This document shows positions 4,173-52,056 of a stretch of 64,000 nucleotides of DNA, one piece after another. This DNA comes from Bacilli bacterium (lineage in GTDB: Bacteria > Bacillota_I > Bacilli_A > RF39 > UBA660). The first letter of the stretch is position 1. Every line of letters begins with the position of its first letter. The notes under the pieces were generated by a model, which did not search any database, had not been told where the DNA came from, and was given only the letters and a program-made list of their open reading frames with translations. The stretch covers positions 18,946 to 82,945 of the forward strand of contig JAFYER010000001.1 in NCBI GenBank assembly GCA_017544165.1, read 5' to 3'. Both the position numbers and the translations under genes were made by a program.

Positions 4173-4382
4173 ATGTTAGAAACAATTATATGGAGTATTA
4201 TTTCCTTAATCGTAGGAATTATATTAGGATTTTTAATTGCAAGAATTGTAACAAAGAAGACTTTAGAGAAAAATCCACCAATTAATGAAAAAATGATTGA
4301 AGCTATGATGAGTAGCATGGGTAGAAAACCAAGCCAAAAACAAGTTAAACAAGTTATGGCTCAAATGAATCGTTTTAAATAA
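4173..4382 (+). CDS. UPF0154 (YneF-like) small membrane protein
   Basis: 69 aa with one N-terminal TM helix. The conserved NPPINEKMIEAMMSSMGRKPSQKQVKQVM stretch is typical of the YneF family. Confidence 0.8.
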   Translation: MLETIIWSIISLIVGIILGFLIARIVTKKTLEKNPPINEKMIEAMMSSMGRKPSQKQVKQVMAQMNRFK

Positions 4383-4405
4383 GATAAACATTCGTTTATC
4401 TTTTT
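4382..4405 (+). terminator. rho-independent terminator
   Basis: AGATAAAC-ATTC-GTTTATCT followed by TTTTT. Confidence 0.7.
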
Positions 4406-4431
4406 GTTGTTTTAGAAAGGGAGTTTTGTAA

Positions 4432-6303
4432 ATGACTTACGAGAATTTAAAAGATTATAAACAAAAATTATTAGAGTTATCTAAAGAGGATAAGAAAAAA
4501 AGAGATGAATATTTAAGACAGTTAGCTAATGGGACTATTCAAGGTCCTCCGGTTGGTTATCCAAGTGTTGATATACCTGCTTTGGCTTACTATAATTTTG
4601 AAGAGTATATTAAGGATAATCCAAAAGAAACAATTACTGAGGCTTTATTTAGAAATAACATAGACCATTTAAAGGATACGGCTATTGAGTATTTTGGAAC
4701 CAAAATTTCATATTATGAATTATTTAAAAATATTTATGCGTTAGTTGATGCGCTTGATGTAAGTGGTGTAAAAAAAGGTGATGGCATAATTGCTACTCTT
4801 CCAGGTATTCCTGAGTCAATGTATTCATTATATGCAGCTGGTTATTTAGGAGCTACATGTGTTTTCATGCTTCCATATTTAAAAAAAGAGTCGATGATTG
4901 CTGATATCAACAAAGATCATAGTAGAATACTTATAATTATGGATGTTTTGTATGAACAATATAAAGAAGTTTATGATGAAGTATTAGAAAAATCAACTTT
5001 AGAAAGAATTATTGTTGTGCCAACCCTTAATTCTTCGAAACTTGGTAAAATAAAAAAAGGTAAAAAATTTCCAGGAACAACACCTTATAATGATTTTGTC
5101 AAAGAAGGGGAAGGTAATATAACTCCCGACATATGTCCTTATGAGGAAAATATGCCAGTAGCAGTTGTCTATTCTTCGGGGACTACTGGTGATATCAAGG
5201 GTGTACTTCTTTCTCATGATTCAATTAATAATTCAGCACTTTCTTATTTGCCATTTGGTTTTGATTTAAAAAGAGGACAAAAGTTTTATCAAACTATACC
5301 AGTATGGACTTCAACTGGTTTAGTTGCTAATGGAACCTCACCGCTTTATTATGGTTCTATTTTACATCAAGATCCTAGATTTGACCCACTTACTTTCTCT
5401 AAAAATATTGGTAAGTCAAAATCTAACTGGGGCATTGGTACAACCGAATTGTTTAATGGTTTAGAGGAAATCAGTAAAAAGAAAGTATTTGGTTTACTTA
5501 CAAAAATGCATATTTTAGATTATACTAAACTTAATAATGCCTATGTCGGAGGAACATTATCAACTCCGAATGATAAGGCTAAATTAAATGAATTGTTCAA
5601 AAGAATTGGCAGTCCTGCTGTTGCTAATAGTAGTTATGGAACATGTGAAAATGGTTCAATTGTAACTGCTGAACTTAATGATTTACCACATTATGATTAT
5701 TCAGTTGGTATCCCAATTCCTGGAGCTACTATAATAGCTATTGATAAGGATGAACATGAACTTCCATACAATACACGTGGCGAACTTGCTGTAAGCACTA
5801 ATTGTGGGATGCTTCGTTACTATAATCGTCCTGATTTAAAAGATGTTTTTTATACTGACGAAACAGATGGCGTGAGATATAAACATACTGGTGATATTGG
5901 CTATGTCAGAAGTGATGGCTTTGTAATATATGAAGGAAGAGCTAATGACATTTCTATAGTAGATGGAACGCAAATCTATAATTTTGATGTAAAACAAGTT
6001 ATAATTAAAGATCCAGATGTGTTTGATTGTGAAGTATTTATGCATGATGAAAAATTATGTGCTCATTTAGTTTTCAAACATCCAGTTGAGGATATAAATC
6101 TCAAATTTGCTCAAATTCAAACTGAAATTATGCATGTTCTTAAAGATGATGTGTATGTACCAGAATTATTTAAAGTACGTACATCATTCCCAATGGCTGC
6201 GTCTACTAAAAGGAATTATAAGGCTTTAAAAGAGGAACAAGATGGATATGTTTATATTCCTAAAAATAGATATGCTAGAGAAAGAAAATGTGATATACTA
6301 TAA
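4432..6303 (+). CDS. AMP-dependent synthetase/ligase (adenylate-forming enzyme, substrate unknown)
   Basis: 623 aa. AMP-binding signature VVYSSGTTGDIKGVLLSH; downstream YKHTGDIGYVRSDGFVIYEGR. Confidence 0.8.
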   Translation: MTYENLKDYKQKLLELSKEDKKKRDEYLRQLANGTIQGPPVGYPSVDIPALAYYNFEEYIKDNPKETITEALFRNNIDHLKDTAIEYFGTKISYYELFKNIYALVDALDVSGVKKGDGIIATLPGIPESMYSLYAAGYLGATCVFMLPYLKKESMIADINKDHSRILIIMDVLYEQYKEVYDEVLEKSTLERIIVVPTLNSSKLGKIKKGKKFPGTTPYNDFVKEGEGNITPDICPYEENMPVAVVYSSGTTGDIKGVLLSHDSINNSALSYLPFGFDLKRGQKFYQTIPVWTSTGLVANGTSPLYYGSILHQDPRFDPLTFSKNIGKSKSNWGIGTTELFNGLEEISKKKVFGLLTKMHILDYTKLNNAYVGGTLSTPNDKAKLNELFKRIGSPAVANSSYGTCENGSIVTAELNDLPHYDYSVGIPIPGATIIAIDKDEHELPYNTRGELAVSTNCGMLRYYNRPDLKDVFYTDETDGVRYKHTGDIGYVRSDGFVIYEGRANDISIVDGTQIYNFDVKQVIIKDPDVFDCEVFMHDEKLCAHLVFKHPVEDINLKFAQIQTEIMHVLKDDVYVPELFKVRTSFPMAASTKRNYKALKEEQDGYVYIPKNRYARERKCDIL

Positions 6304-6321: not shown

Positions 6322-8100
6322 GTGATTGTTACTAAATTAACATGTTTAACTGTTTTTTGCATTATTTTCATGATTTCTTTGATAATTATCTATTTTTCAA
6401 AGCAAAGAATTAAAAGTGAAGAAAATCGTGTTTATAAAATAATGCTAGTTGTAAACTTAATAGGTATTTTTTTGCAAGTTGCTTCGAAATATTGTGCGTT
6501 TTATTATGATGTATTACCTCCAATATTTTGCCAATTTATGTTTAAATCATTCTTAGCTTACTTTAATGTATTTGCAATGCTTATTTTAAACTATGTTATT
6601 ATTTTAGTAATTCCTAAAGAAAAAATCAAAAAGGTCAATACTATTAATTATGTCTTTTTTGGTATTTTGTCTTTAATCACTTATTTTTTACCGATATCTG
6701 TTCATTGTGATTTAGAATCACAAGTTGCCTATACTTATGGCTTTGCGGTTACTTATTCATTTATTGTGGCAGGATTAGCATCATTAATCCTTCTTATATT
6801 GCTACTACCAAATTTGCGTAAAACTTCAAAAAAGAAAGTGTTACCACTTTTCATTTTCTTATTATTTTGCATGGTAGCTATTGCTATTCAAAAAGTAATG
6901 CCAGATCTTATGATGATGTGTTTTGTCGAAAGTTTCCTATGTTTTATAATGTTTCATACCATAGAAAATCCAGATATCATGATGCTTAACGAATTATATG
7001 AAAATCGAAGAATTATTGAAAGTAGCAATCAAGACATGTCTAATTTCTTATTTAAAATTTCTCAAGAGATTAGAAAACCAGTTAAGGAATTAATAGAGAT
7101 AAGCGATGGAAAAAATGATAATGAACTTAAGGAAATTAATAATATTAGTAAACATCTCGACTATTTAATCGATGATGCTCTTGATTTATCAGGTCTTTCT
7201 ACGAAAAAATTAAAACTATATAATAATAAATATAATATACGTAATTTATTTGACGAAATAAGAATTAAAGCTAAAAATAGTATAAATAAAGATACTAAAC
7301 TAGATTATAAAGTAAGTAGTAGTATTCCCGAGTATGTCTATGGCGATGGTGTAAGATTAAAGCAAATCTTAGGGGCTGTTGTAAATAACGCAATTGCTCA
7401 CACCGAAAAAGGGTATATTACCATTGAAATAAACACAATTATTAAATATGATATATGCCGTTTTATTATTGATGTTACCGATTCTGGAAAGGGCATGACA
7501 TTAGATAAAATTAATGAAATACTAAACTTAAAAGAACTTGATTTTGAAGCTGATTTGGATGATAATACCGATAATCTCAAAGTAGTTAAGGTACTTACCA
7601 ATAAAATTGGTGGAAGTTTCATGGTTCAAGCTGACGATAAGGGTACAACTGTAAGTATTACTATTGATCAAAAAATTGTGGAAAATACTGAAACTGAAAT
7701 ATCTAAAAAATTAGATTTATATGAAGAATCACTTCATTTAAATAAAAAGATAATGGTTGTCGATGAAAACATAAAAGAACTTACTCGGATAACCCATTTT
7801 CTCGAGGATAAAGGAAATATTGTATCTTCCTCATTATACGCAAATGATGTAATTGAAAAAATATACAAAAAATATAAATATGATTTAATTATTCTTGATG
7901 ATGAAACAAGTACTTCTAGCGCTTACGATGTTTTAAAAGAACTTAAGAAAATAGAAAAGTTTAATACACCAGTAGTTATAATGATTGATGATAATAAAGA
8001 ATTTATTAAGCTTCATTATTTAAAAGATGGATTTGCCGATGTCATAATGAAATCAAAACTCACAAGTGAACTTGAAAGAGTAATTAAAAAAGAATTATAA
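6322..8100 (+). CDS. membrane sensor kinase-like protein with HATPase_c and a C-terminal receiver-like domain; H-box histidine replaced by Gln
   Basis: 592 aa with about 6 N-terminal TM helices. N box VVNNAIAHTEKG, G1 DSGKGM, G2 GGSF. The H-box position reads FKISQEIRKPV. The receiver-like tail has VVDEN...LIILDDE. Confidence 0.7.
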   Translation: MIVTKLTCLTVFCIIFMISLIIIYFSKQRIKSEENRVYKIMLVVNLIGIFLQVASKYCAFYYDVLPPIFCQFMFKSFLAYFNVFAMLILNYVIILVIPKEKIKKVNTINYVFFGILSLITYFLPISVHCDLESQVAYTYGFAVTYSFIVAGLASLILLILLLPNLRKTSKKKVLPLFIFLLFCMVAIAIQKVMPDLMMMCFVESFLCFIMFHTIENPDIMMLNELYENRRIIESSNQDMSNFLFKISQEIRKPVKELIEISDGKNDNELKEINNISKHLDYLIDDALDLSGLSTKKLKLYNNKYNIRNLFDEIRIKAKNSINKDTKLDYKVSSSIPEYVYGDGVRLKQILGAVVNNAIAHTEKGYITIEINTIIKYDICRFIIDVTDSGKGMTLDKINEILNLKELDFEADLDDNTDNLKVVKVLTNKIGGSFMVQADDKGTTVSITIDQKIVENTETEISKKLDLYEESLHLNKKIMVVDENIKELTRITHFLEDKGNIVSSSLYANDVIEKIYKKYKYDLIILDDETSTSSAYDVLKELKKIEKFNTPVVIMIDDNKEFIKLHYLKDGFADVIMKSKLTSELERVIKKEL

Positions 8101-8421: not shown

Positions 8422-10230
8422 ATGAAAAAGAATAACATTGTATTATCTGTAATAGCCATTATAATGCTTTTAAGTATGTTTGCAATTGCATCATATGCTT
8501 TTTTTGATATAGGTAATTTAAATATAACCAATGTAACAAATTTTACTGCTACATCTGAACGAAATAACATGGTGTTTGATTCTCTTGGTGGAATAATGGA
8601 ATTAAATGTTACGGCCATCAATATGTCAAATAGTTTAAGTGGCAGTGTAGCGGCAGAAAATACAGCAATATTAACAGTTAACTTTCAAGCAAATACTACA
8701 GAAAGTATGGTATGTTCCTACGATATCATGTATGAATGGACGTCGACTGATAAATATCAAGTTCATTCAAATGGTGTAACTGAAAATGAATATACTATTC
8801 AAGCAAGTTTAGCAGCTAATGAACATGTAAGTGAGGGAGTAAACCATATAGCAAACGATTTAGATTTATCAGTAGCAGTAGGAAGTAATAATAGTGCAAT
8901 AGTTGTAAGTGGGGCGCAAATAGATAGTACGGGAACCTCGACGAGCACAGCAGTATGGACCATGACAAGTAAATTTTTTAATGTCGATGCTGATCAAGAC
9001 AATTTAGCTGGTAAAAATTATGCTGGAAGATTTAAAGTAGCAAATGTTTCTTGCGTATCAGGAACAAGACAATTAACTTTGGTGGAGTATATCTCCAATG
9101 AAGCACCAAGAAGTGGGACAGATGCAGTATCAAATAGTCCATGGATATTAACGGAAGATCATACAGGTGAATGGCGTTATGCTGGTAAAAACCCCGATAA
9201 TTATGTTCAGTTTAATGGAGAGCTTTGGCGAATAATTGGTGTCATGCCTAACATGACTTATTGTACCGGAACATATGGAACAGAAACCGAATGTAATACA
9301 ACCAAAACTGGAAATTTAATAAAAATAATAAGAAACCAAACTATCAGCAGTAGCACCCTAAGTTGGGATTATAAACAAACTGGCGTAGGCTCGTCCATAT
9401 CAGAATATGGTTCAAACGACTGGAGTGATAGCCAGTTAATGCTTATGTTAAATGGAACAAACTATTTAAAAACAGGATATGATGTAAATGGCAATAAATT
9501 ACATCAAAGTTATACTATAACAAGTAATGTAGTAAAAGGAAATGGATATAACTATTATAATGCAACATATAGCTATCTAGATGGAAATGGAACAACCGTA
9601 AATATTCCAAGTCAGGCTTCAACAAGCGCATATACAGCAACAAGTGGAAGTGTTTATAAGAAAATAGAAAGCACAGCCCTTGCTCAAATAGCAACAGTAA
9701 AATGGGATTTATATGGAACGAATAGTTATAATAATACCTCTATACCAAGTCTTGGAAGTCCAATCGACTTTTATAATAAAGAAAGAAATATAAATGATCT
9801 TGGAGCAGTATATATAGGAACAACACCAGAAAATAGACCAGTGTATTGGTATGGAAAGATAGGCCTAATGTATCCAAGTGATTATGGTTACGCCACAAAT
9901 GGTGGAAGTACATATAATAGAGATGCTTGTTTAGATTATAGAATGGTCGGCTGGCATAGTGGTGATTATAAAACGGATTGTGCAACAAATAGTTATCTCT
10001 GGTATAATAACATAACGTCTTCTGCTCCAAGGACAAGTGGAACAAATCAATGGACAATGTCTCCGTACTCTGGTCACGCGTACATTGTGTTCTATGTCAG
10101 TAGCAGCGGCGTCGTGCTCATCGTTAGCGCCTACACTACCTATGCGGTCCGCCCCGTCTTGTATCTGAAAGCTGAATTAGGGTTTGGCGGTGGAAATGGA
10201 ACATACAATTCACCATATTTACTAAGTTAG
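8422..10230 (+). CDS. surface protein, paralogue 1 of a 3-member family (N-terminal anchor/signal, C-terminal lectin-like module with VR-like segment)
   Basis: 602 aa with a hydrophobic N-terminus ending ..ASYAFFDIGN (TasA/SipW-type-like). Long blocks are near-identical to 18035..19837 and 49807..52056 (SPWILT.DH.GEWRYAGKNPDNY..FNGELWRIIGVMP; WSDSQLMLMLNG.NYLKTGYDV; VYWYGKIGLMYPSD.GYA). The C-terminal pattern QWT.SP.SG.A..VF.V...G.V....(V/A)RP.LYLKA resembles DUF1566/C-type-lectin-fold ends. Confidence 0.75.
   Translation: MKKNNIVLSVIAIIMLLSMFAIASYAFFDIGNLNITNVTNFTATSERNNMVFDSLGGIMELNVTAINMSNSLSGSVAAENTAILTVNFQANTTESMVCSYDIMYEWTSTDKYQVHSNGVTENEYTIQASLAANEHVSEGVNHIANDLDLSVAVGSNNSAIVVSGAQIDSTGTSTSTAVWTMTSKFFNVDADQDNLAGKNYAGRFKVANVSCVSGTRQLTLVEYISNEAPRSGTDAVSNSPWILTEDHTGEWRYAGKNPDNYVQFNGELWRIIGVMPNMTYCTGTYGTETECNTTKTGNLIKIIRNQTISSSTLSWDYKQTGVGSSISEYGSNDWSDSQLMLMLNGTNYLKTGYDVNGNKLHQSYTITSNVVKGNGYNYYNATYSYLDGNGTTVNIPSQASTSAYTATSGSVYKKIESTALAQIATVKWDLYGTNSYNNTSIPSLGSPIDFYNKERNINDLGAVYIGTTPENRPVYWYGKIGLMYPSDYGYATNGGSTYNRDACLDYRMVGWHSGDYKTDCATNSYLWYNNITSSAPRTSGTNQWTMSPYSGHAYIVFYVSSSGVVLIVSAYTTYAVRPVLYLKAELGFGGGNGTYNSPYLLS
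10061..10160 (+). other. GC-rich, A-poor, NNY-codon hypervariable (VR-like) segment inside paralogue 1
   Basis: By hand count, 57 G+C and 14 A in these 100 nt. Codons 10072-10143 are 21/24 NNY. Confidence 0.7.
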
Positions 10231-10249
10231 AGGCAGTCCGAAGGACAAC

Positions 10250-10278
10250 GTCCCTGCCGGCTCTTAATCCGGCAGGAC
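10250..10278 (+). other. GC-rich stem-loop 20 nt after the stop codon of paralogue 1
   Basis: CCTGCCGG (10253-10260) pairs with CCGGCAGG (10269-10276) across an 8-nt loop. No T-tract follows. Confidence 0.7.
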
Positions 10279-10286
10279 ATATATAT

Positions 10287-10475
10287 GGAGTAATCTTTAC
10301 AAAAAACGAAAGTTCAGGCAACGCCAACAATGTGTTCCGTGTGGTTGGAGATGGTTGTGTGAACAGCAACCCCGCTAACTACGCCAATGGGGCGCGCCCA
10401 ACATTATATCTAAATGCTAATACATTATTTAATGGTGGGACGGGCAAGTGGAATGATTCATATACAATTAAATAA
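10287..10475 (+). pseudogene. promoterless, start-less duplicate of the paralogue C-terminal module (AAY-rich cassette; TR-like or gene remnant)
   Basis: This frame (+2 relative to paralogue 1) is open over 10176-10475 and has no ATG. It encodes GVIFTKNESSGNANNVFRVVGDGCVNSNPANYANGARPTLYLNANTLFNGGTGKWNDSYTIK*. 7 of the 24 codons in 10317-10388 are AAC/AAT. G+C is 57% over 10321-10400. Confidence 0.6.
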
Positions 10476-10532
10476 GTAATGTTTTTATACATTGCTTTTT
10501 ATATGTGATATAATTAATTAAAGAGGTAGCTT

Positions 10533-13370
10533 ATGACACCAATAAAGATAATTACAGAATATACATTATTAAAAAGCTTAATTAAAATACCTGAATTAAT
10601 ATCCTTTTTACGTGAAAAAAATATTTCTGTATGTGGAATATGTGATGAAGAACTTTTTGGTGTTATGGAGTTTTATGAAGCTTGTAAGAATAATAATATT
10701 AAACCCATTATTGGTTTATCTATAAATATTGAGGGTCATAATATCTATTTATATCCTAAAAATTATGATGGATATCAAAAATTACTTAAGATTAATACTA
10801 ATAAGTTTAGTAATGAAAATACTTTTGAAAATATCGAAGATAATAATCTTTTTATTGTAATTGATTATAAATCAAAAGATATTTATGAAAAATTTTCTTT
10901 AAAGAAAAATGTTTATATTTCTTATCAAAATAAAGATGAAAAATTAAATGCTTTACTTATAACTAATAATGTTTTATATATAAAAGAAATTAGATGCTTT
11001 AATAAAGAAGATGTTAAGTATTTAGATTATTTAAAAATAATTGGTAGTGATTTTTCTTATTCAAAAGATTGTTATTTTTATAGTAATTGTGATGAAGATG
11101 ATGAAAAAAGATTAAATGATTTTGTAAAACAAATAAATATTGAAATGCCTTTTGATCATAGGTATATTCCTGTATTTAAAAAAGGTATTAATTCTTTGGA
11201 ATATTTAGAGAAATTAGCTACAGCGGGTTTAAATAAAAGGCTTGATGGAAAAGTTTTTAAAAAATATAGTGATCGTTTAAAAGAAGAACTTAATGTTATA
11301 AATGAAATGGGTTTTGTTGATTATTTCTTAATAGTATATGATTACGTTTTATATGCCAAGAAAAATCATGTTTTAATAGGCCCAGGAAGAGGTTCAGCGG
11401 CGGGAAGTTTAGTTAGTTTCGCAATTGGTATTACCGATATTGACCCAATTAAGTATGATTTGTTATTTGCTAGATTCCTAAATCCATATCGAAAGAAAAT
11501 GCCTGATATTGATATCGATTTCGAGGATACTAAAAGAGATATGATAATAGATTATGTAAGAGAAAAATATGGAAGTGATAAAGTTGCTACGGGTCTTACC
11601 TTTAATACTTTAAAAGCAAAACTTGTCTTAAGAGATTTAGCGCGTGGCTTAAAAGTAGATAGTAATCTATTTGAAAAATTTATAAAGTTTATTGATCGAA
11701 ATAAGTCTTTAGAGGAAAATAAAGAAGATAAACTTGTCTTAAAATATTTAGAAATGTATCCTGAACTTAACAAAACATATGATATAGCTATGCATTTAGA
11801 AAATCTTAAGAAAAATGTTTCTACCCATGCTGCTGGTATTGTTATTTCATCAGTTAATCTGGATGAAGTAATACCTGTTTATAAAAATGGTGATGCTATT
11901 CAAACAGGGATTGCCATGGATTATTTAGAAAAATTAGGCTTACTTAAGATGGATTTTCTAGCTCTTAGAAATTTGACAATTATTGATAGCATCCTTAAAA
12001 AAATAAAAGGATTTAATATAAATGAAATAGATTTAAATGATCCAAACGTATATGAAATATTTAAAAATGCTGATACTGATGATATTTTTCAATTCGAATC
12101 GAGATATGCTAAAAATAATTTATTAAAATTACAAGTTTCTAATTTCGAAGAATTATGTATTATGATGGCTTTTTTAAGACCTGGACCTAGTAATCAAATT
12201 GATGAATATGTCAAAAATAAAAATAGTAATGATTATTATATTCATCCTGATTTAAAGAAAACACTTCAAAGTACGTATGGAGTAATCATTTTTCAAGAAC
12301 AAGTCATGAAAATACTTGAAATTGTTGGGGGATACTCTTTATATGAAGCGGATAATATTCGAACAGCGATGAGTAAGAAAAAAGAAGATATTATCGAAAA
12401 AGAAAGAGAAAAGTTTATTTCTAATGCTCTAGAAAAAGGATATGAAAAAGATTTTGTAATAGATATCTTTGAAAAAATCAAAAGATTTGCGGAGTATGGT
12501 TTTAATAAAGCTCACTCAGTATCTTATGCTTATATTTCTTATGAACTAGCATATTTTAAGACATACTATCCAAATGAGTTTTATATATCACTTTTAGATT
12601 TTGCTAAAGATAATAATGATCGAGTAAGACTATTTAATCTTTTGAAAAAAAATAAAGTAAAAATATTAAAACCTAATTTAAATGTATCTAGTTTTAATTA
12701 TCAATTTAAGAATAATTATTTATTACTTCCAGTAAGTATGGTTAGAACTATTCAAGGAAATGTTTTAAAGGATATTCTTGATAAAAAAGATTCTAGTTTT
12801 AGTGATATTTATGATTTTATGTTAAAATGTCATAATATTTTAAATGATAAAATTTATAATGATTTAGTTAGAAGTGGCCTTTTAGACATCTTTGGTTTTA
12901 ATCATCAAACATTAATTCAAAATAAAGATACATTATTTAATTATGCTATTTTAGAAGATCCTAATGCACAAAAACCACTTTTAAGGCAGTATCCTGAATA
13001 TCCTTTAGAAGAAATTAGAAAAGATGAACTTGATTCTTTTGGCTTTTATATTGGCAATCATCCAACTTCAGTTTATAAAAACGTTATTAAAGTAAAAGAT
13101 ACGCAAAAATATTTATTTAAAAATATTGATATGGCACTACTTGTCAAAAAAGTAACATGTATCAAAACTAAAAATAATGAGGAAATGACCTTTATACAAG
13201 CTGAGGATGAAACAGGTAGTATTGAAATAACTTTATTTCCCGAAGTTTGGAAAAAATGCCCAAGTATCAAAAATAATGATATAATACTTATTAATGGAAA
13301 ATCATCGAAAAGATATGATAAATATCAAATAATTGTTAATAAGGTAAAATTAGAAAGAAGTGAAGCATGA
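10533..13370 (+). CDS. dnaE: DNA polymerase III alpha subunit, DnaE type
   Basis: 945 aa with the characteristic polymerase core (GPGRGSAAGSLVSFAIGITDIDP; PDIDIDF; HAAGIVIS; FNKAHSVSYA). The N-terminal PHP ligands are degenerate. Confidence 0.9.
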   Translation: MTPIKIITEYTLLKSLIKIPELISFLREKNISVCGICDEELFGVMEFYEACKNNNIKPIIGLSINIEGHNIYLYPKNYDGYQKLLKINTNKFSNENTFENIEDNNLFIVIDYKSKDIYEKFSLKKNVYISYQNKDEKLNALLITNNVLYIKEIRCFNKEDVKYLDYLKIIGSDFSYSKDCYFYSNCDEDDEKRLNDFVKQINIEMPFDHRYIPVFKKGINSLEYLEKLATAGLNKRLDGKVFKKYSDRLKEELNVINEMGFVDYFLIVYDYVLYAKKNHVLIGPGRGSAAGSLVSFAIGITDIDPIKYDLLFARFLNPYRKKMPDIDIDFEDTKRDMIIDYVREKYGSDKVATGLTFNTLKAKLVLRDLARGLKVDSNLFEKFIKFIDRNKSLEENKEDKLVLKYLEMYPELNKTYDIAMHLENLKKNVSTHAAGIVISSVNLDEVIPVYKNGDAIQTGIAMDYLEKLGLLKMDFLALRNLTIIDSILKKIKGFNINEIDLNDPNVYEIFKNADTDDIFQFESRYAKNNLLKLQVSNFEELCIMMAFLRPGPSNQIDEYVKNKNSNDYYIHPDLKKTLQSTYGVIIFQEQVMKILEIVGGYSLYEADNIRTAMSKKKEDIIEKEREKFISNALEKGYEKDFVIDIFEKIKRFAEYGFNKAHSVSYAYISYELAYFKTYYPNEFYISLLDFAKDNNDRVRLFNLLKKNKVKILKPNLNVSSFNYQFKNNYLLLPVSMVRTIQGNVLKDILDKKDSSFSDIYDFMLKCHNILNDKIYNDLVRSGLLDIFGFNHQTLIQNKDTLFNYAILEDPNAQKPLLRQYPEYPLEEIRKDELDSFGFYIGNHPTSVYKNVIKVKDTQKYLFKNIDMALLVKKVTCIKTKNNEEMTFIQAEDETGSIEITLFPEVWKKCPSIKNNDIILINGKSSKRYDKYQIIVNKVKLERSEA

Positions 13371-46277: not shown

Positions 46278-47043
46278 TTGTTTATTTACCGTTACAAATT
46301 TGGAATTAATAGAAAAACTTAAAGGACTTAAAATTAATAATTTTGTTTATCCTTTATCTTTTTTTTGTGTAGGAATTCCAAATACTTTTACAATTGATCA
46401 AATAAAAGAGGAAAGTTCTTATCTTTTCATTAATCGGATACTTGATTCAAAGGATATTGATAAGTTAAATGAAGTTCTTCATAATTTACCAAGTAATATC
46501 AAAGGTATTATTTTTGATGATGTGGGAATTATTGAAATAACTAAAGATTTAAAACTAGAAAAAATATTATTTTTAAGTCATTTTAACACTAACTTTGAAT
46601 CAATAAATTATTTTTTTGAATATGTCGATGATATCATTGTTTCTACTGATATTACTGAAGAAGAAATAGATGAAATAATCACAAAGACTAAGAAAAAGGT
46701 TAGTTTATTTGTTTTTGGTTTAATATCTTCATTATACTCAAGAAGAACGCTACTTACTTCTCATGCTAAACATTATAATATTAAAAAAGAAAATCAAAAA
46801 GATTTAAATATTCAAGATAAAAAATTTATCAGCATTGAAAATGAATTTGGAACAGTACTTTACCACTATCCATATTTTAATGGTAAAAGACTTCTTAATA
46901 AAGATGTAAACTATCTATTTTACTTTCCAATCCTACTTGAGGATGCTAAAGTTTTAGAAGTTGCTAAAAATAATTTTGATTGCATTCCAAATGATTTCGG
47001 CTTTTTAGATACTAAAACTATTTATAAGGTTAAAAATAATTAG
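46267..47043 (+). CDS. YrrN-like protein (peptidase U32-related by position)
   Basis: About 258 aa (ATG 46267). The call rests mainly on conserved gene order yrrM-yrrN-yrrO. The sequence motifs are weak. Confidence 0.45.
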   Translation: MKNNCLFTVTNLELIEKLKGLKINNFVYPLSFFCVGIPNTFTIDQIKEESSYLFINRILDSKDIDKLNEVLHNLPSNIKGIIFDDVGIIEITKDLKLEKILFLSHFNTNFESINYFFEYVDDIIVSTDITEEEIDEIITKTKKKVSLFVFGLISSLYSRRTLLTSHAKHYNIKKENQKDLNIQDKKFISIENEFGTVLYHYPYFNGKRLLNKDVNYLFYFPILLEDAKVLEVAKNNFDCIPNDFGFLDTKTIYKVKNN

Positions 47044-49806: not shown

Positions 49807-52056
49807 ATGAAAAAAGTATCAATATATATAGTGATTATTATTGCAGTACTAGCAGTTATTATTGGCCTTGCGGCTTATGCAATGCGAGCTCCAATTGTTA
49901 ATGTTGAAAACTTGAACACTAACACTTATTTGGGTGGACAAGTATCACTTACAACTTCTGGTGGTGGAGCAATGTCTAGCAGTATATCCACACTTTTAAT
50001 GTCGGAAGCTAGTGCTAATAATAAAATAGAAGTTGCTAATAACATTTTAAATGTAACACTTACTACCTCTAATGATAAACAAATATGTTGCTCATACGAT
50101 ATTGTTTGGGAATGGGATCAAACAAACGTAACAGCAAATCAATATAGTTTAACATCGGGTGCTACAAAAGAATTTACCTTATCAGGCTCTTATAGTGATT
50201 ATTATGGAAATTCTACAGCCAATACATTAGGTGGTTCAAATATTTCTTGGTTCGAAAGACAATTACAAAACTATAATGCATCAGCACGTTCTTCATCAAT
50301 GACTAGAGCTACAATTTGCAATAATCCAACCCAATCCTCCAAAGTTAGAACACATTCATGGAATCTTGCGACAAATTTTTATAATCTTAATATAAATCAA
50401 GATGCTTTTAAACAATCAGCATTTTCTGGTAAAGCTAAAGTTGCTAATGTTTCATGTACAAATCAAAAAACATTTGCCGATTACTTAGCAAGTGGTGCTC
50501 CAAGAAGTGGAATCGATGCTGTATCAAGTAGTCCATGGATATTAACATCAGATCATCCAGGTGAATGGCGCTATGCCGGCAAAAACCCAGATAACTATAT
50601 ATCTTTTAATGGAGAACTATGGCGAATAATCGGCGTAATGCCAGATATGACATATTGTACAGGTGAATATGGTAATGCAAATGAGTGCAATACAACTGCA
50701 ACAGGAAGTTTAGTTAAAATAATTAGAAACGATTCATTAGGATCATTTTTATTAGATTATAAACAAACAGGAGTAGGCTCATCCATAACAACTGCTGGGT
50801 CCAACGATTGGAGTGATAGTCAATTAATGTTAATGTTAAATGGAACAAATTATTTAAAAACAGGGTATGATGTAAATAATACTAAGTTGCATAATTCCTA
50901 TACAATAACAAGTAATATAGTCGCAGGAAATGGATATAATTTTTACAATGCAACATATAGCTATTTAGATGGGAATGGAACAACAGTATATGTACCTAGT
51001 AGTGCAACAACAAGTAGCTATACCGCAACAAGTGGAACGGTCCCAAAGAAAATAGGAACAACAGCACTATCCCAAATAGCAACCGTAAAATGGGATTTAT
51101 ATGGAACAAGTAGTTTTACAACTGCAGCAGAAGGAAGTCCAGCAGCCTTTTATAATAAAGAAAGAAATATTGGTAACACAGGTGCTGTTTATAATGTAAC
51201 TGCAACTGGACGTGAAAAAAGAGCAGTATATTGGTATGGAAAGATAGGACTAATGTATCCAAGTGATTATGGATATGCTAGTAATGGCGATGGAAGTACG
51301 TATAGTAGAAGTGATTGTATGGGAACAGAAATGTATAACTGGGATAGCGCAGAAGCATGTTATGAAAATGATTGGATGTATTACGTAAATGCAACAGCCT
51401 CATCAGTGGGAACAAGTAACACGTATCAATGGGCCTTAAGCCCGCATTCAGGTAATGCCGCCAATGCTTTCTGCGTGGATATTGATGGTTATGTGGCCAA
51501 CTGCAGCGTCGTCGACGACTCCAATGGGGTCCGGACCGTCTTGTATCTTAAAGCTGATACAACATTTACTGGTGGATCAGGTACATATAATGATCCTTTT
51601 ATAATAGATTCAAGATTGTATTGGCTTGCTTATGGTACTTATACATATCCAAATCATGGTGGTACTTTATATACTAGTGGCTCAGATACTGATTCTCTCG
51701 TATATATCGGTCAGGATACAAAACATTATGCTTGCGCAACTATTCAAAATCAAGAAATATGTTTATCTCAGCCATATGCACAATATGGTCTTAGGGGTCA
51801 CACTGTAGGTACAAATTTTACTACTGAACAGCAAAATAGTATTGCTAATGCTTTGAAAAAAGTCTTTGCCGATGCGGGAGTTAGCGTTGATATTGAGAAC
51901 GATTGTTATAAGAATTCTGGATATGTTAATTGCTACGATCCTAATGCTGAAATATATTGTGGGGTTAATAGTGATGGATCTATTGACTGTGGTGATGAAG
52001 AGGAAAATTACGAATATTGTTGGCTTAACCCTGATGGTACAGCTGAGTGTGGATAA
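49807..52056 (+). CDS. surface protein, paralogue 3 (divergent N-terminal third, VR-like segment, extra Cys-rich C-terminal extension)
   Basis: About 749 aa (ATG 49807 after AGGTG). The central 350 aa are highly similar to paralogues 1 and 2. After ..VRTVLYLKADTTFTGGSGTYNDPFII there is an additional ~170 aa with 10 or more Cys (..CYKNSGYVNCYDPNAEIYCGVNSDGSIDCG..CWLNPDGTAECG). Confidence 0.75.
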   Translation: MKKVSIYIVIIIAVLAVIIGLAAYAMRAPIVNVENLNTNTYLGGQVSLTTSGGGAMSSSISTLLMSEASANNKIEVANNILNVTLTTSNDKQICCSYDIVWEWDQTNVTANQYSLTSGATKEFTLSGSYSDYYGNSTANTLGGSNISWFERQLQNYNASARSSSMTRATICNNPTQSSKVRTHSWNLATNFYNLNINQDAFKQSAFSGKAKVANVSCTNQKTFADYLASGAPRSGIDAVSSSPWILTSDHPGEWRYAGKNPDNYISFNGELWRIIGVMPDMTYCTGEYGNANECNTTATGSLVKIIRNDSLGSFLLDYKQTGVGSSITTAGSNDWSDSQLMLMLNGTNYLKTGYDVNNTKLHNSYTITSNIVAGNGYNFYNATYSYLDGNGTTVYVPSSATTSSYTATSGTVPKKIGTTALSQIATVKWDLYGTSSFTTAAEGSPAAFYNKERNIGNTGAVYNVTATGREKRAVYWYGKIGLMYPSDYGYASNGDGSTYSRSDCMGTEMYNWDSAEACYENDWMYYVNATASSVGTSNTYQWALSPHSGNAANAFCVDIDGYVANCSVVDDSNGVRTVLYLKADTTFTGGSGTYNDPFIIDSRLYWLAYGTYTYPNHGGTLYTSGSDTDSLVYIGQDTKHYACATIQNQEICLSQPYAQYGLRGHTVGTNFTTEQQNSIANALKKVFADAGVSVDIENDCYKNSGYVNCYDPNAEIYCGVNSDGSIDCGDEEENYEYCWLNPDGTAECG
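51441..51545 (+). other. GC-rich NNY-codon hypervariable (VR-like) segment inside paralogue 3
   Basis: By hand count, 57 G+C in 51441-51540. Codons 51451-51525 are 23/25 NNY. Confidence 0.7.

Follow-up and report, generated by a model that had tools for sequence, protein, structure and literature searches.

We analyzed a 64,000-nt stretch of the genome of a Bacilli bacterium (contig JAFYER010000001.1 of assembly GCA_017544165.1), hereafter called the window, and in particular positions 10231 to 10475, which lie between the stop codon of a gene that we call paralogue 1 and the gene dnaE. With a probability of about 0.72, we read this segment as an orphan of a diversity-generating retroelement (DGR): a copy of its stop-hairpin-lead-template module that is non-functional, chimeric between a template repeat (TR) on its 5′ side and a variable region (VR) on its 3′ side, and ending in a displaced gene 3′ end. 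The evidence that carries this reading comes from the working DGR cassette of the same genome, from the distribution of adenine changes along the segment, and from copies of the same module at related loci. All window features given below are on the plus strand.

A canonical DGR in the source genome

The source genome has a canonical DGR on another contig (loci L031 and L032; loci are designated by L numbers and family genes by P numbers). Its order is target gene P0030 (NCBI IKR74_01830), a hairpin-bearing element termed E, a lead sequence, the TR, a spacer, two small open reading frames (ORFs), bAvd, and the reverse transcriptase (RT). The TR (L031 6540-6626) is followed by a 160-nt spacer, ORFs of 94 and 126 amino acids, bAvd (L031 7428-7793; PF22296, E = 2e-7, 31.9 bits, under the Pfam gathering score of 40), and a 354-aa RT (L031 7783-8847) that matches RVT_1 at E = 2e-18 and BPP-1 Brt at 2e-23 by BLASTP and has the motifs LPIGNMSSQ and YMDD. 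The cassette TR and the VR of P0030 differ at 15 of 30 adenines and at none of the 57 other positions (p = 6e-9). The cassette is tied to the genome of the window in several ways: P0030, P0051, P0060, and P0082 share the IKR74_ locus-tag prefix of one NCBI metagenome-assembled genome (MAG), one contig carries both paralogue 1 and, 9 kb upstream of it, P0060, and L032 is from the assembly holding the 173-kb contig.

An earlier reading of the window made from its letters alone (the sequence-only reading) had framed the segment in terms of a DGR, and this framing is borne out by the adenine-only TR/VR pair of the cassette as well as by the genuine VR of paralogue 1 described below. The same reading would have counted the lack of any RT in the genome against a functional role; a cassette with bAvd and a DGR-type RT is present.

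Anatomy of the segment behind paralogue 1

Window positions 10228-10390 were found to be colinear with the stop-E-lead-TR part of the cassette (82% identity over 163 nt, E = 2e-41; ~88% over the first 107 nt), and the segment also aligns with the orphan TRs of loci L030 and L004. Its homology to the family genes begins exactly at the TR start. Judged by position, flanks, and start point, the segment is homologous to a template module, and no counterpart of the cassette spacer, ORFs, Avd, or RT was found in the window.

Immediately behind the TAG stop of paralogue 1 comes the E element (10231-10281), which runs into a TR-type upstream flank of ~35 nt, the lead ACATATATATGGAGTAATCTTTACAAAAAACGAAAGT (10277-10313). 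The lead aligns with the sequence before the true TR of L031 and the orphan TRs of L030 and L004 but does not resemble the part of the genes that precedes their VRs. Module codons 1-8, TCAGGCAACGCCAACAATGTGTTC (10314-10337), are in the TR state with no adenine changed; of their 24 nt, 23 agree with both the cassette TR and the L030 TR, and the one mismatch is the third base of GGC/GGT. Codons 9-26 (10338-10391) appear, from the comparison with the pure TR of L030 given below, to be an adenine-mutagenized part in the VR state, and codons 9-12 (CGT GTG GTT GGA) recur in the VR of P0007, a full-length gene. The 3′ end that follows, GCGCGCCCAACATTATATCTAAAT (10392-10415), encodes ARPTLYLN, with Arg and Tyr as in VRs, where the orphan TRs have Trp and Cys and the cassette TR has its spacer; 20 nt of it, CGCCCAACATTATATCTAAA, are identical to gene P0082. 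The segment closes with the in-frame C-terminal tail ANTLFNGGTGKWNDSYTIK and a TAA stop (10416-10475), the remnant of a gene 3′ end. The tail end and downstream junction (..ATACAAT.AA.TAAGTAATGTTTTTATACATT) are also found in the syntenic locus L003.

Much of what the sequence-only reading had described here was confirmed. An open frame runs from 10176 up to the TAA (10473-10475) and contains no start codon that yields an ORF; the homology does continue to the stop codon, with dnaE rather than an RT next. That the segment re-encodes the C-terminal module of the family (SGNANNVFRVVGDGCVNSNPANYANGARPTLYLNANTLFNGGTGKWNDSYTIK) is real, but the homology starts only at 10314 (TCAGGC), giving a 55-codon copy (10314-10475) instead of the 63 codons from 10287 that had been proposed. 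Our alignment agrees that seven AAC or AAT codons, among 26 in the core, stand opposite CAC, TAC, ATT, CTC, GTT, TAC, and TAT of paralogue 1. The earlier hand estimate of ~55-60% identity with many mismatches at positions other than adenine compares with ~56% over 102 nt against the paralogue 1 module, the core mismatches falling on 13 of 19 adenines and 23 of 59 other positions. Asn-codon enrichment at diversified positions had been named as the hallmark of a TR. In its present state, the segment is nevertheless not a template: relative to the L030 TR, codons 9-26 are changed at adenines only, as in a product. The Asn codons of the tail, where AAT replaces AAA or GAT, reflect ordinary decay and no design by a DGR.

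In searches with the segment, tblastn against paralogue 3 gave 5e-8 with the query one base off the module frame, and blastn gave 74% identity over 166 nt to another family member. When the segment was used by itself as a protein query, no candidates came up, possibly because of a word-index limit.

Comparison with templates and variable regions

A profile made of the segment and idealized all-Asn versions of it retrieved short TR-encoded ORFs, including P0121 of L030, which is the intact counterpart of the window segment. The L030 locus consists of a target-gene end, E, a spacer ending in a decayed tail and a second, diverged E, the lead GGGTAATCTTTACAAAAGCCGAAAG, and the pure template SGNANNVFNVDEDGYVNNNNANNANGVWPVLCLK. 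The VR of P0003 differs from this TR at 13 of 26 adenines and 3 of 49 other positions, the latter at nt 1-6 of the core, and that of P0007 at 14 of 28 adenines and 3 of 50 other positions, the latter in the last core codon. Because P0003 and P0007 differ from it almost only at its adenines, the L030-type TR is a valid template sequence.

When compared with the L030 TR, the lead and codons 1-8 of the segment are changed at 0 of 20 adenines and 4 of 37 other positions, a pattern that we take for ordinary divergence in the template state, whereas codons 9-26 are changed at 9 of 21 adenines and 0 of 33 other positions (Fisher p = 5.5e-5). The two parts differ from each other in adenine change at p = 0.0013. 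Adenine-only changes of this kind argue that the 3′ two-thirds of the segment are in the product (VR) state and are not a donor. In the reverse direction, with the segment taken as the template, the L030 TR mismatches it at 0 of 19 adenines and 10 of 59 other positions, and seven VRs (those of paralogue 1, P0003, P0004, P0007, P0008, and P0062 among them) show 8-23 mismatches at its 58-59 non-adenine positions; the VR of paralogue 3 is also non-cognate by eye. A VR matching the segment except at its adenines, as the sequence-only reading had envisaged, was thus not found among the seven VRs examined. The segment is without a current template role, since it has no spacer, Avd, or RT, mismatches all of these VRs at non-adenine positions, has a product-state core, and ends like a gene, and it is decaying.

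The hairpin behind the stop codon

The arms of the hairpin in E, CCTGCCGG (10253-10260) and CCGGCAGG (10269-10276), form an 8-bp stem with seven G:C pairs around the 8-nt loop CTCTTAAT, with no T-tract; the sequence-only reading had given the same dimensions and implied a position that is right to within 1 nt. Folded as DNA, the hairpin reaches -12 kcal/mol (z = -2.9), a value equalled by 1 of 200 shuffles. We considered and rejected an intrinsic terminator, as that reading had done, since there is no T-tract and no terminator-like site was scored at the hairpin.

The hairpin belongs to an element of ~50 nt that has its start at the stop codon (AAGTTAG-AGGCAGTCCGAAG...) and shows the layout AGAGGCAGTCCGAAG..CCTGCCGG-loop-CCGGCAGGACATA. 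This E element was found at six distinct target-gene 3′ ends, always directly after the stop, and nowhere else in 569 kb of related sequence. The carriers are paralogue 1, P0062 (L014) and P0030 (L031) of the same genome, P0003 (L003), P0004 (L004), and the gene at the start of L030. Across the six loci, the stem is invariant and the loop varies at 8-11 nt (CTCTTAAT, CTCTCAAT, CTCGTGGGT, GCTCGAAAGTA), which is conservation without covariation. The five numbered carriers are GC-rich targets; P0008 has no E. Because P0062 carries E with no TR-like sequence behind it, E belongs to the targets and not to the templates. Exact-pattern scans for the E element in viral contigs and for the VR 3′ end in JGI metagenomes returned nothing.

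A hairpin of the kind carried by DGR targets had been suggested for this site. The link to targets stands, as E follows target genes and is identical behind paralogue 1 and the cassette target P0030, but the published dimensions are not matched. Guo et al. 2011 (PMC3240598) described a DGR target hairpin in which a GC stem of 7-10 bp closes a GRNA loop of 4 nt, located 4-34 bp downstream of the VR. E resembles it in having a GC-rich 8-bp stem downstream of the VR, a conserved stem with a variable loop, and a linkage to targets. On the other hand, its loop is 8-11 nt long and not a 4-nt GRNA, and its stem starts 22 nt past the stop and ~97 nt, not 4-34, past the end of the TR/VR homology. We regard E as a DGR-target-associated element, with a putative role in homing that its association with targets suggests.

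Copies of the module at related loci

Locus L003, the ortholog of the window locus by synteny (L28-gene-dnaE), keeps E and the extreme tail end, with the TR-like part deleted. The paralogous locus L004 has a hairpin-lead-TR unit with an internally deleted TR (SGNANNNNNAVWPVLCLK). Given the deletion in the one and the truncation in the other, the segment is not conserved among relatives. The full-length fourth paralogue that relatives might have shown at this site, according to the sequence-only reading, was not seen at either locus; both carry reduced forms of the same element.

The same two loci have a ~130-nt spacer between E and the template remnant (L003 7850-7950, L004 3962-4060), which contains a promoter-like TTGACA-N18-TAAACG. 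Since this spacer ends in a decayed gene tail and a second, diverged E, the E-to-template units look like nested remains of successive 3′-end insertions. In L004, a gene for a XerC/D-like tyrosine recombinase (4280-5173) starts 10 nt past the truncated orphan template of P0004; this adjacency is probably coincidental because other copies of the module have different neighbors. A 120-aa ORF behind the orphan TR of L030/L005 was considered as an Avd and rejected, as it has no bAvd match and is present where the TR is absent.

Origin of the segment

The segment most likely arose by homologous recombination between a cassette-like donor (gene body-VR-tail-stop-E-lead-TR) and a resident gene, the distal crossover falling near codon 8 within the TR/VR homology and a second one upstream. 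In this history, a new VR-tail-E module would have entered the gene, and its old VR 3′ part, tail, and stop would have been displaced downstream and fused to the lead and the TR 5′ end. Crossovers at the TR 3′ end would give pure orphan TRs with tails, such as those of L030 and L004. Afterwards, direct repeats may delete, as in L003, or the two E copies (E1 and E2) may recombine; the junction in the window, GGACATATATA, is of the E2 type. A variant with the same product would be partial mutagenic retrohoming into an orphan TR with a VR-like 3′ end. We rejected a single long mutagenized cDNA spanning TR, lead, hairpin, and tail, given that adenines are unchanged in the lead and codons 1-8 (0 of 20) and frequently changed thereafter (9 of 21).

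Among the four origins that the sequence-only reading had listed, a decayed or ancestral TR comes closest, in that the segment is TR-homologous, but the core is a TR/VR chimera in the product state. If the variant just mentioned stood by itself, with an orphan TR that acquired a VR-like 3′ end and was then hit by mutagenic retrohoming, the template would have turned target and no TR-VR recombination at the DNA level would be involved. We consider this unlikely. It fits the confinement of adenine-only changes to the 3′ two-thirds of the core, as expected from cDNA integration at the 3′ end with a variable 5′ crossover, and it fits the finding that the orphan TRs with altered Trp/Cys 3′ ends (L030, L004) are unmutated and the Arg/Tyr-ended window copy is mutated, directionality in BPP-1 being set by 3′-end mismatches (PMC3240598). 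However, no E hairpin lies behind the segment, unlike the GC-rich targets paralogue 1, P0062, P0030, P0003, and P0004 (P0008 lacks one), and VR ancestry explains the gene-like in-frame tail and the P0007-VR substitutions more simply. VR ancestry without any template ancestry, in the form of the decayed 3′ end of a fourth tandem paralogue, is in our view improbable. Homology does run through the tail to a stop at the usual position in a frame that is still open, and the core is diversified and VR-like, having CGT..GTT GGA in common with the VR of a real gene, P0007. Yet what lies 5′ is no gene body but a TR-type lead plus E, with 88-95% identity to the sequences flanking true and orphan TRs, the gene homology starts exactly at the TR start with the first eight codons in the unmutated template state, and the syntenic relative has no gene at the site.

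We see very little chance that the segment is a working second TR, used in trans by the distant Avd-RT for a target outside the window. It does occupy the place of a genuine TR behind a target and hairpin and keeps 19 adenines and seven AAY codons in its core; co-transcription would be expected for it as for a genuine TR, neither being preceded by a promoter, and relatives hold pure, tailed orphan TRs that match VRs in those relatives. Nonetheless, it is without a counterpart of the spacer, which in BPP-1 is reportedly needed for priming, no Avd or RT is nearby, its mismatches at non-adenine positions extend to all seven VRs, its adenine-only differences from the pure TR mark it as a product, and it is deleted or truncated in relatives. 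The chance is just as slight that it serves as a silent cassette donating sequence to the expressed 3′ end through programmed gene conversion, as in the antigenic variation of pilS, vls, or MgPar. In line with such a role, the segment has no promoter, start codon, or ribosome-binding site and adjoins an expressed gene, and the mosaic 3′ modules of the family with breakpoints at the VR, together with the deletions between direct repeats in relatives, would suit it. However, the segment exists as one copy and not as an array, relatives have lost or truncated it, an identical paralogue 1 occurs on 7 contigs that come from several samples, and the adenine/NNY-type variation of the family (see below) is explained by a DGR and not by cassette shuffling.

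Several considerations weigh against the chimeric-copy reading that we prefer. The TR of the genome itself is a different variant, from which the segment differs at 13 of 30 adenines and 11 of 57 other positions, and the pure TR used as reference (L030) is from another genome. CGT at codon 9 is common in family VRs, and some of the positions scored as mutated could be fixed non-adenine positions of an unseen TR variant. The MAG is incomplete, and a VR cognate to the segment may be elsewhere in the genome. Donor and recipient are unobserved, the history is rebuilt from four loci in different genomes, and recombination and self-retrohoming are indistinguishable with these data. Finally, every available copy of the exact window locus is identical, so these copies are uninformative on selection or activity.

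Paralogue 1 and its family

Paralogue 1 (P0001) is an ORF of 602 aa (8422-10230, with its TAG stop at 10228-10230), a DGR-type target with a signal-anchor N-terminus and a DUF6273-like domain. Its match to Pfam DUF6273 is weak (E = 0.0015, 18.8 bits, under the cutoff of 23.5). The best match of its AlphaFold2 (AF2) model (predicted local distance difference test score, 94) is the structure of the Thomasclavelia ramosa IgA peptidase (E = 1e-7). The N-terminal domain of that peptidase is DUF6273 according to the authors of the structure and may be the part matched; matches of the model to C-type lectin domains are short and weak. DUF6273 has a C-type-lectin-like fold and is already known as a domain that DGRs target (PMC10743442).

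The family has >2000 members, all from MAGs of uncultured ruminant-gut Bacilli or from metagenomes. Their C-termini keep the flanks QWT.SP.S ... VRPVLYLKADT constant on either side of a hypervariable block. Among 50 canonical-length modules, 17 variable columns hold up to 15 residue types each, and K, E, Q, M, and W, the residues beyond the reach of NNY codons, make up 2.2% of these columns against a background of 13.5% in the same proteins.

Paralogue 1 carries a genuine DGR-type VR (10069-10170). Its 26-codon core (10069-10146), which we call type 1, is followed by the constant GC-rich 3′ end GTCCGCCCCGTCTTGTATCTGAAA (10147-10170), which is identical in paralogue 1, P0003, P0004, and P0008 and occupies the position of the initiation of mutagenic homing (IMH) site. 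In the cassette, the TR/VR homology stops inside this constant end, at GTCCGGCCC. The C-terminal block has 53-56% GC and a negative AT skew, the window as a whole having 29% GC. All 15 variable codons of the VR are NNY, and the scaffold codons avoid adenine. Differences from the VR block of P0004 are almost only at codon positions 1-2. The identity between these two genes jumps from ~80% upstream of the VR to 92-98% in the tail and E, showing that the 3′ modules recombine at the VR and supporting the recombinational origin proposed above.

The VR of paralogue 1 mismatches the cassette TR at 17 of 30 adenines and 11 of 57 other positions and is therefore not cognate to the current TR of the genome; it probably derives from another or older TR variant. 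The exact paralogue 1 protein was found on 7 contigs, as mentioned above. We also observed that a type 1 set of non-adenine positions, GCG..GTC..GGC..GCC..GCGGTCCGCCCC, is common to the VRs of paralogue 1, P0004, P0008, P0062, and P0026 (window 10069-10170, L004 3750-3850, L027 17730-17830, L014 11625-11725, and L033 6830-6930). As this set differs from the cassette TR at ~10 positions, a second or older TR variant must exist or have existed; it was not found among the loci examined.

The window holds two further paralogues. Paralogue 2 (P0027, 18026-19837) has a variable block decayed to 27% GC and no E behind it. Together with P0051 and P0082 (L015, L028), it belongs to the paralogues with variable blocks at 27-44% GC, NNA/NNG codons, and no E; these drifted paralogues were apparently DGR targets once and have ceased to be rewritten. 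In paralogue 3 (P0059, 49801-52056), the VR-like block is GC-rich and internal (~51430-51540), with a ~150-aa extension behind it and no E. A second hypervariable module, rich in Cys (..DIDNDCGA....C.VG.L.C.V...GYV.C.D.SE.V.C.VDPAGRA.C), ends many relatives of ~380 aa (P0097-P0120), and a decayed version of it forms the C-terminus of paralogue 3 (window ~51610-52056). Because its variable positions look NNY-restricted, this module suggests a second DGR-diversified domain type in the clade.

Genomic context of the window and the cassette

The segment is followed by dnaE (10533-13370) and then polC. Promoter scoring placed a promoter-like site for dnaE, TATACA-17-TGnTATAAT (10486-10514), 3′ of the segment and none between the paralogue 1 stop and the segment. 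The genuine TR in L031 is likewise without a promoter-like site in front, and the segment is thus probably transcribed as part of the 3′ untranslated region of paralogue 1. We rejected dnaE as a part of the mechanism: elsewhere, the module adjoins the tyrosine recombinase gene (L004), a GerA operon (L030), or Avd-RT (L031), and with such different neighbors the adjacency of dnaE is incidental.

No RT was detected in the window by a scan for YxDD and (I/L)GxxxSQ motifs or by tblastn with BPP-1 Brt, the latter also giving no match in 515 kb of other loci. A YVDD at 46621 was discarded as an RT motif because it sits in a U32 peptidase, and ORFs 4432-6303 and 6322-8100, considered as paralogues, encode an AMP-binding enzyme and a sensor kinase instead. 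An Rfam scan of 9900-10600 found no family. The neighborhoods of P0062, P0051, P0060, P0102, and P0082 contain no RT, and a related-locus search of genome and metagenome contigs returned only the distant MAG Tb.RUG.19 and fragments, with no RT.

The 126-aa ORF between TR and bAvd in the cassette (L031 7060-7440) matches Pfam MutS_I slightly under the cutoff (E = 0.0015, 19.2 bits; cutoff, 20.6). MutS_I is a mismatch-binding domain, and a MutS-domain-I-like accessory protein in a DGR would, if true, be unusual. In a relative, the ortholog of the cassette target (P0026, L033 5216-7850; 86% identical) occupies the same trmD...nusB locus as L031 4695-9021 and has a ~150-aa C-terminal extension instead of a hairpin/E, TR, Avd, or RT. 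The RT cassette has accordingly been gained or lost between close lineages.

Discussion

The system is of a known kind, a canonical DGR with dispersed paralogous targets and a DUF6273-type domain. It is unusual in its target-TR-Avd-RT order, in a large-loop hairpin far from the VR, and in orphan templates that travel with target 3′ modules. Like the BPP-1 DGR (mtd VR-avd-TR-brt), the source-genome cassette shows adenine-only differences between TR and VR, an Avd-family protein next to an RT with (I/L)GxxxSQ and YMDD motifs, a VR at the 3′ end of the target with a GC-rich constant end past which TR and VR diverge, and a GC-rich inverted repeat after the target stop codon. Unlike in BPP-1, the order here is target-hairpin-TR-ORFs-Avd-RT, and the hairpin departs in loop size and distance from the TR/VR homology as described above. 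The system is also chromosomal with many dispersed paralogous targets, and the window holds only a dead template copy.

Trichodesmium erythraeum has at least 12 VR genes served by one TR (PMC4143802). Both there and here, one RT locus stands against paralogous targets scattered among housekeeping genes, some matched to the TR and some decayed, whereas here several targets carry their own hairpin-lead-TR copy (intact, truncated, deleted, or chimeric) with no RT beside it. We found no description of orphan or degenerate TR copies in the literature searched. Tentaclins, the DUF6273/C-type-lectin-like DGR targets of gut phages and prophages (PMC10743442), are similar in that our target domain matches DUF6273, with a Pfam match under the gathering score, and in that the segment profile retrieved TR-encoded peptides of the form ..NVNNNG.VNNNNANN.NGVRP... 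They differ in that the proteins here are cellular, ~600 aa long, with a signal-anchor N-terminus, and are not phage tail proteins.

These results place the three paralogues of the window in a large, previously uncharacterized family of DGR-diversified surface proteins of uncultured ruminant-gut Bacilli and locate the RT cassette of this family. As a fossil, the segment indicates that target 3′ modules, the post-stop hairpin, and the template move together between paralogues, with crossovers inside the TR/VR homology. For annotation, orphan TR-like pieces of this kind can mislead DGR finders that expect one TR beside an RT, and they should be annotated neither as genes nor as templates.

The segment itself gains weight only if orphan templates are usable in trans or if a TR/VR-guided spread of modules recruits targets. 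We raise as a tentative and rather doubtful idea that TR/VR homology might drive the spread, at the DNA or cDNA level, of a VR-tail-stop-hairpin-lead-TR module in this clade, which would supply further paralogues with the hairpin, thereby recruit them as DGR targets, and leave orphan templates behind. If this were true, some of the dispersed orphan templates would still be pure and possibly usable in trans, and the window copy, overwritten by adenine mutagenesis, would be a record of target gain and template inactivation.

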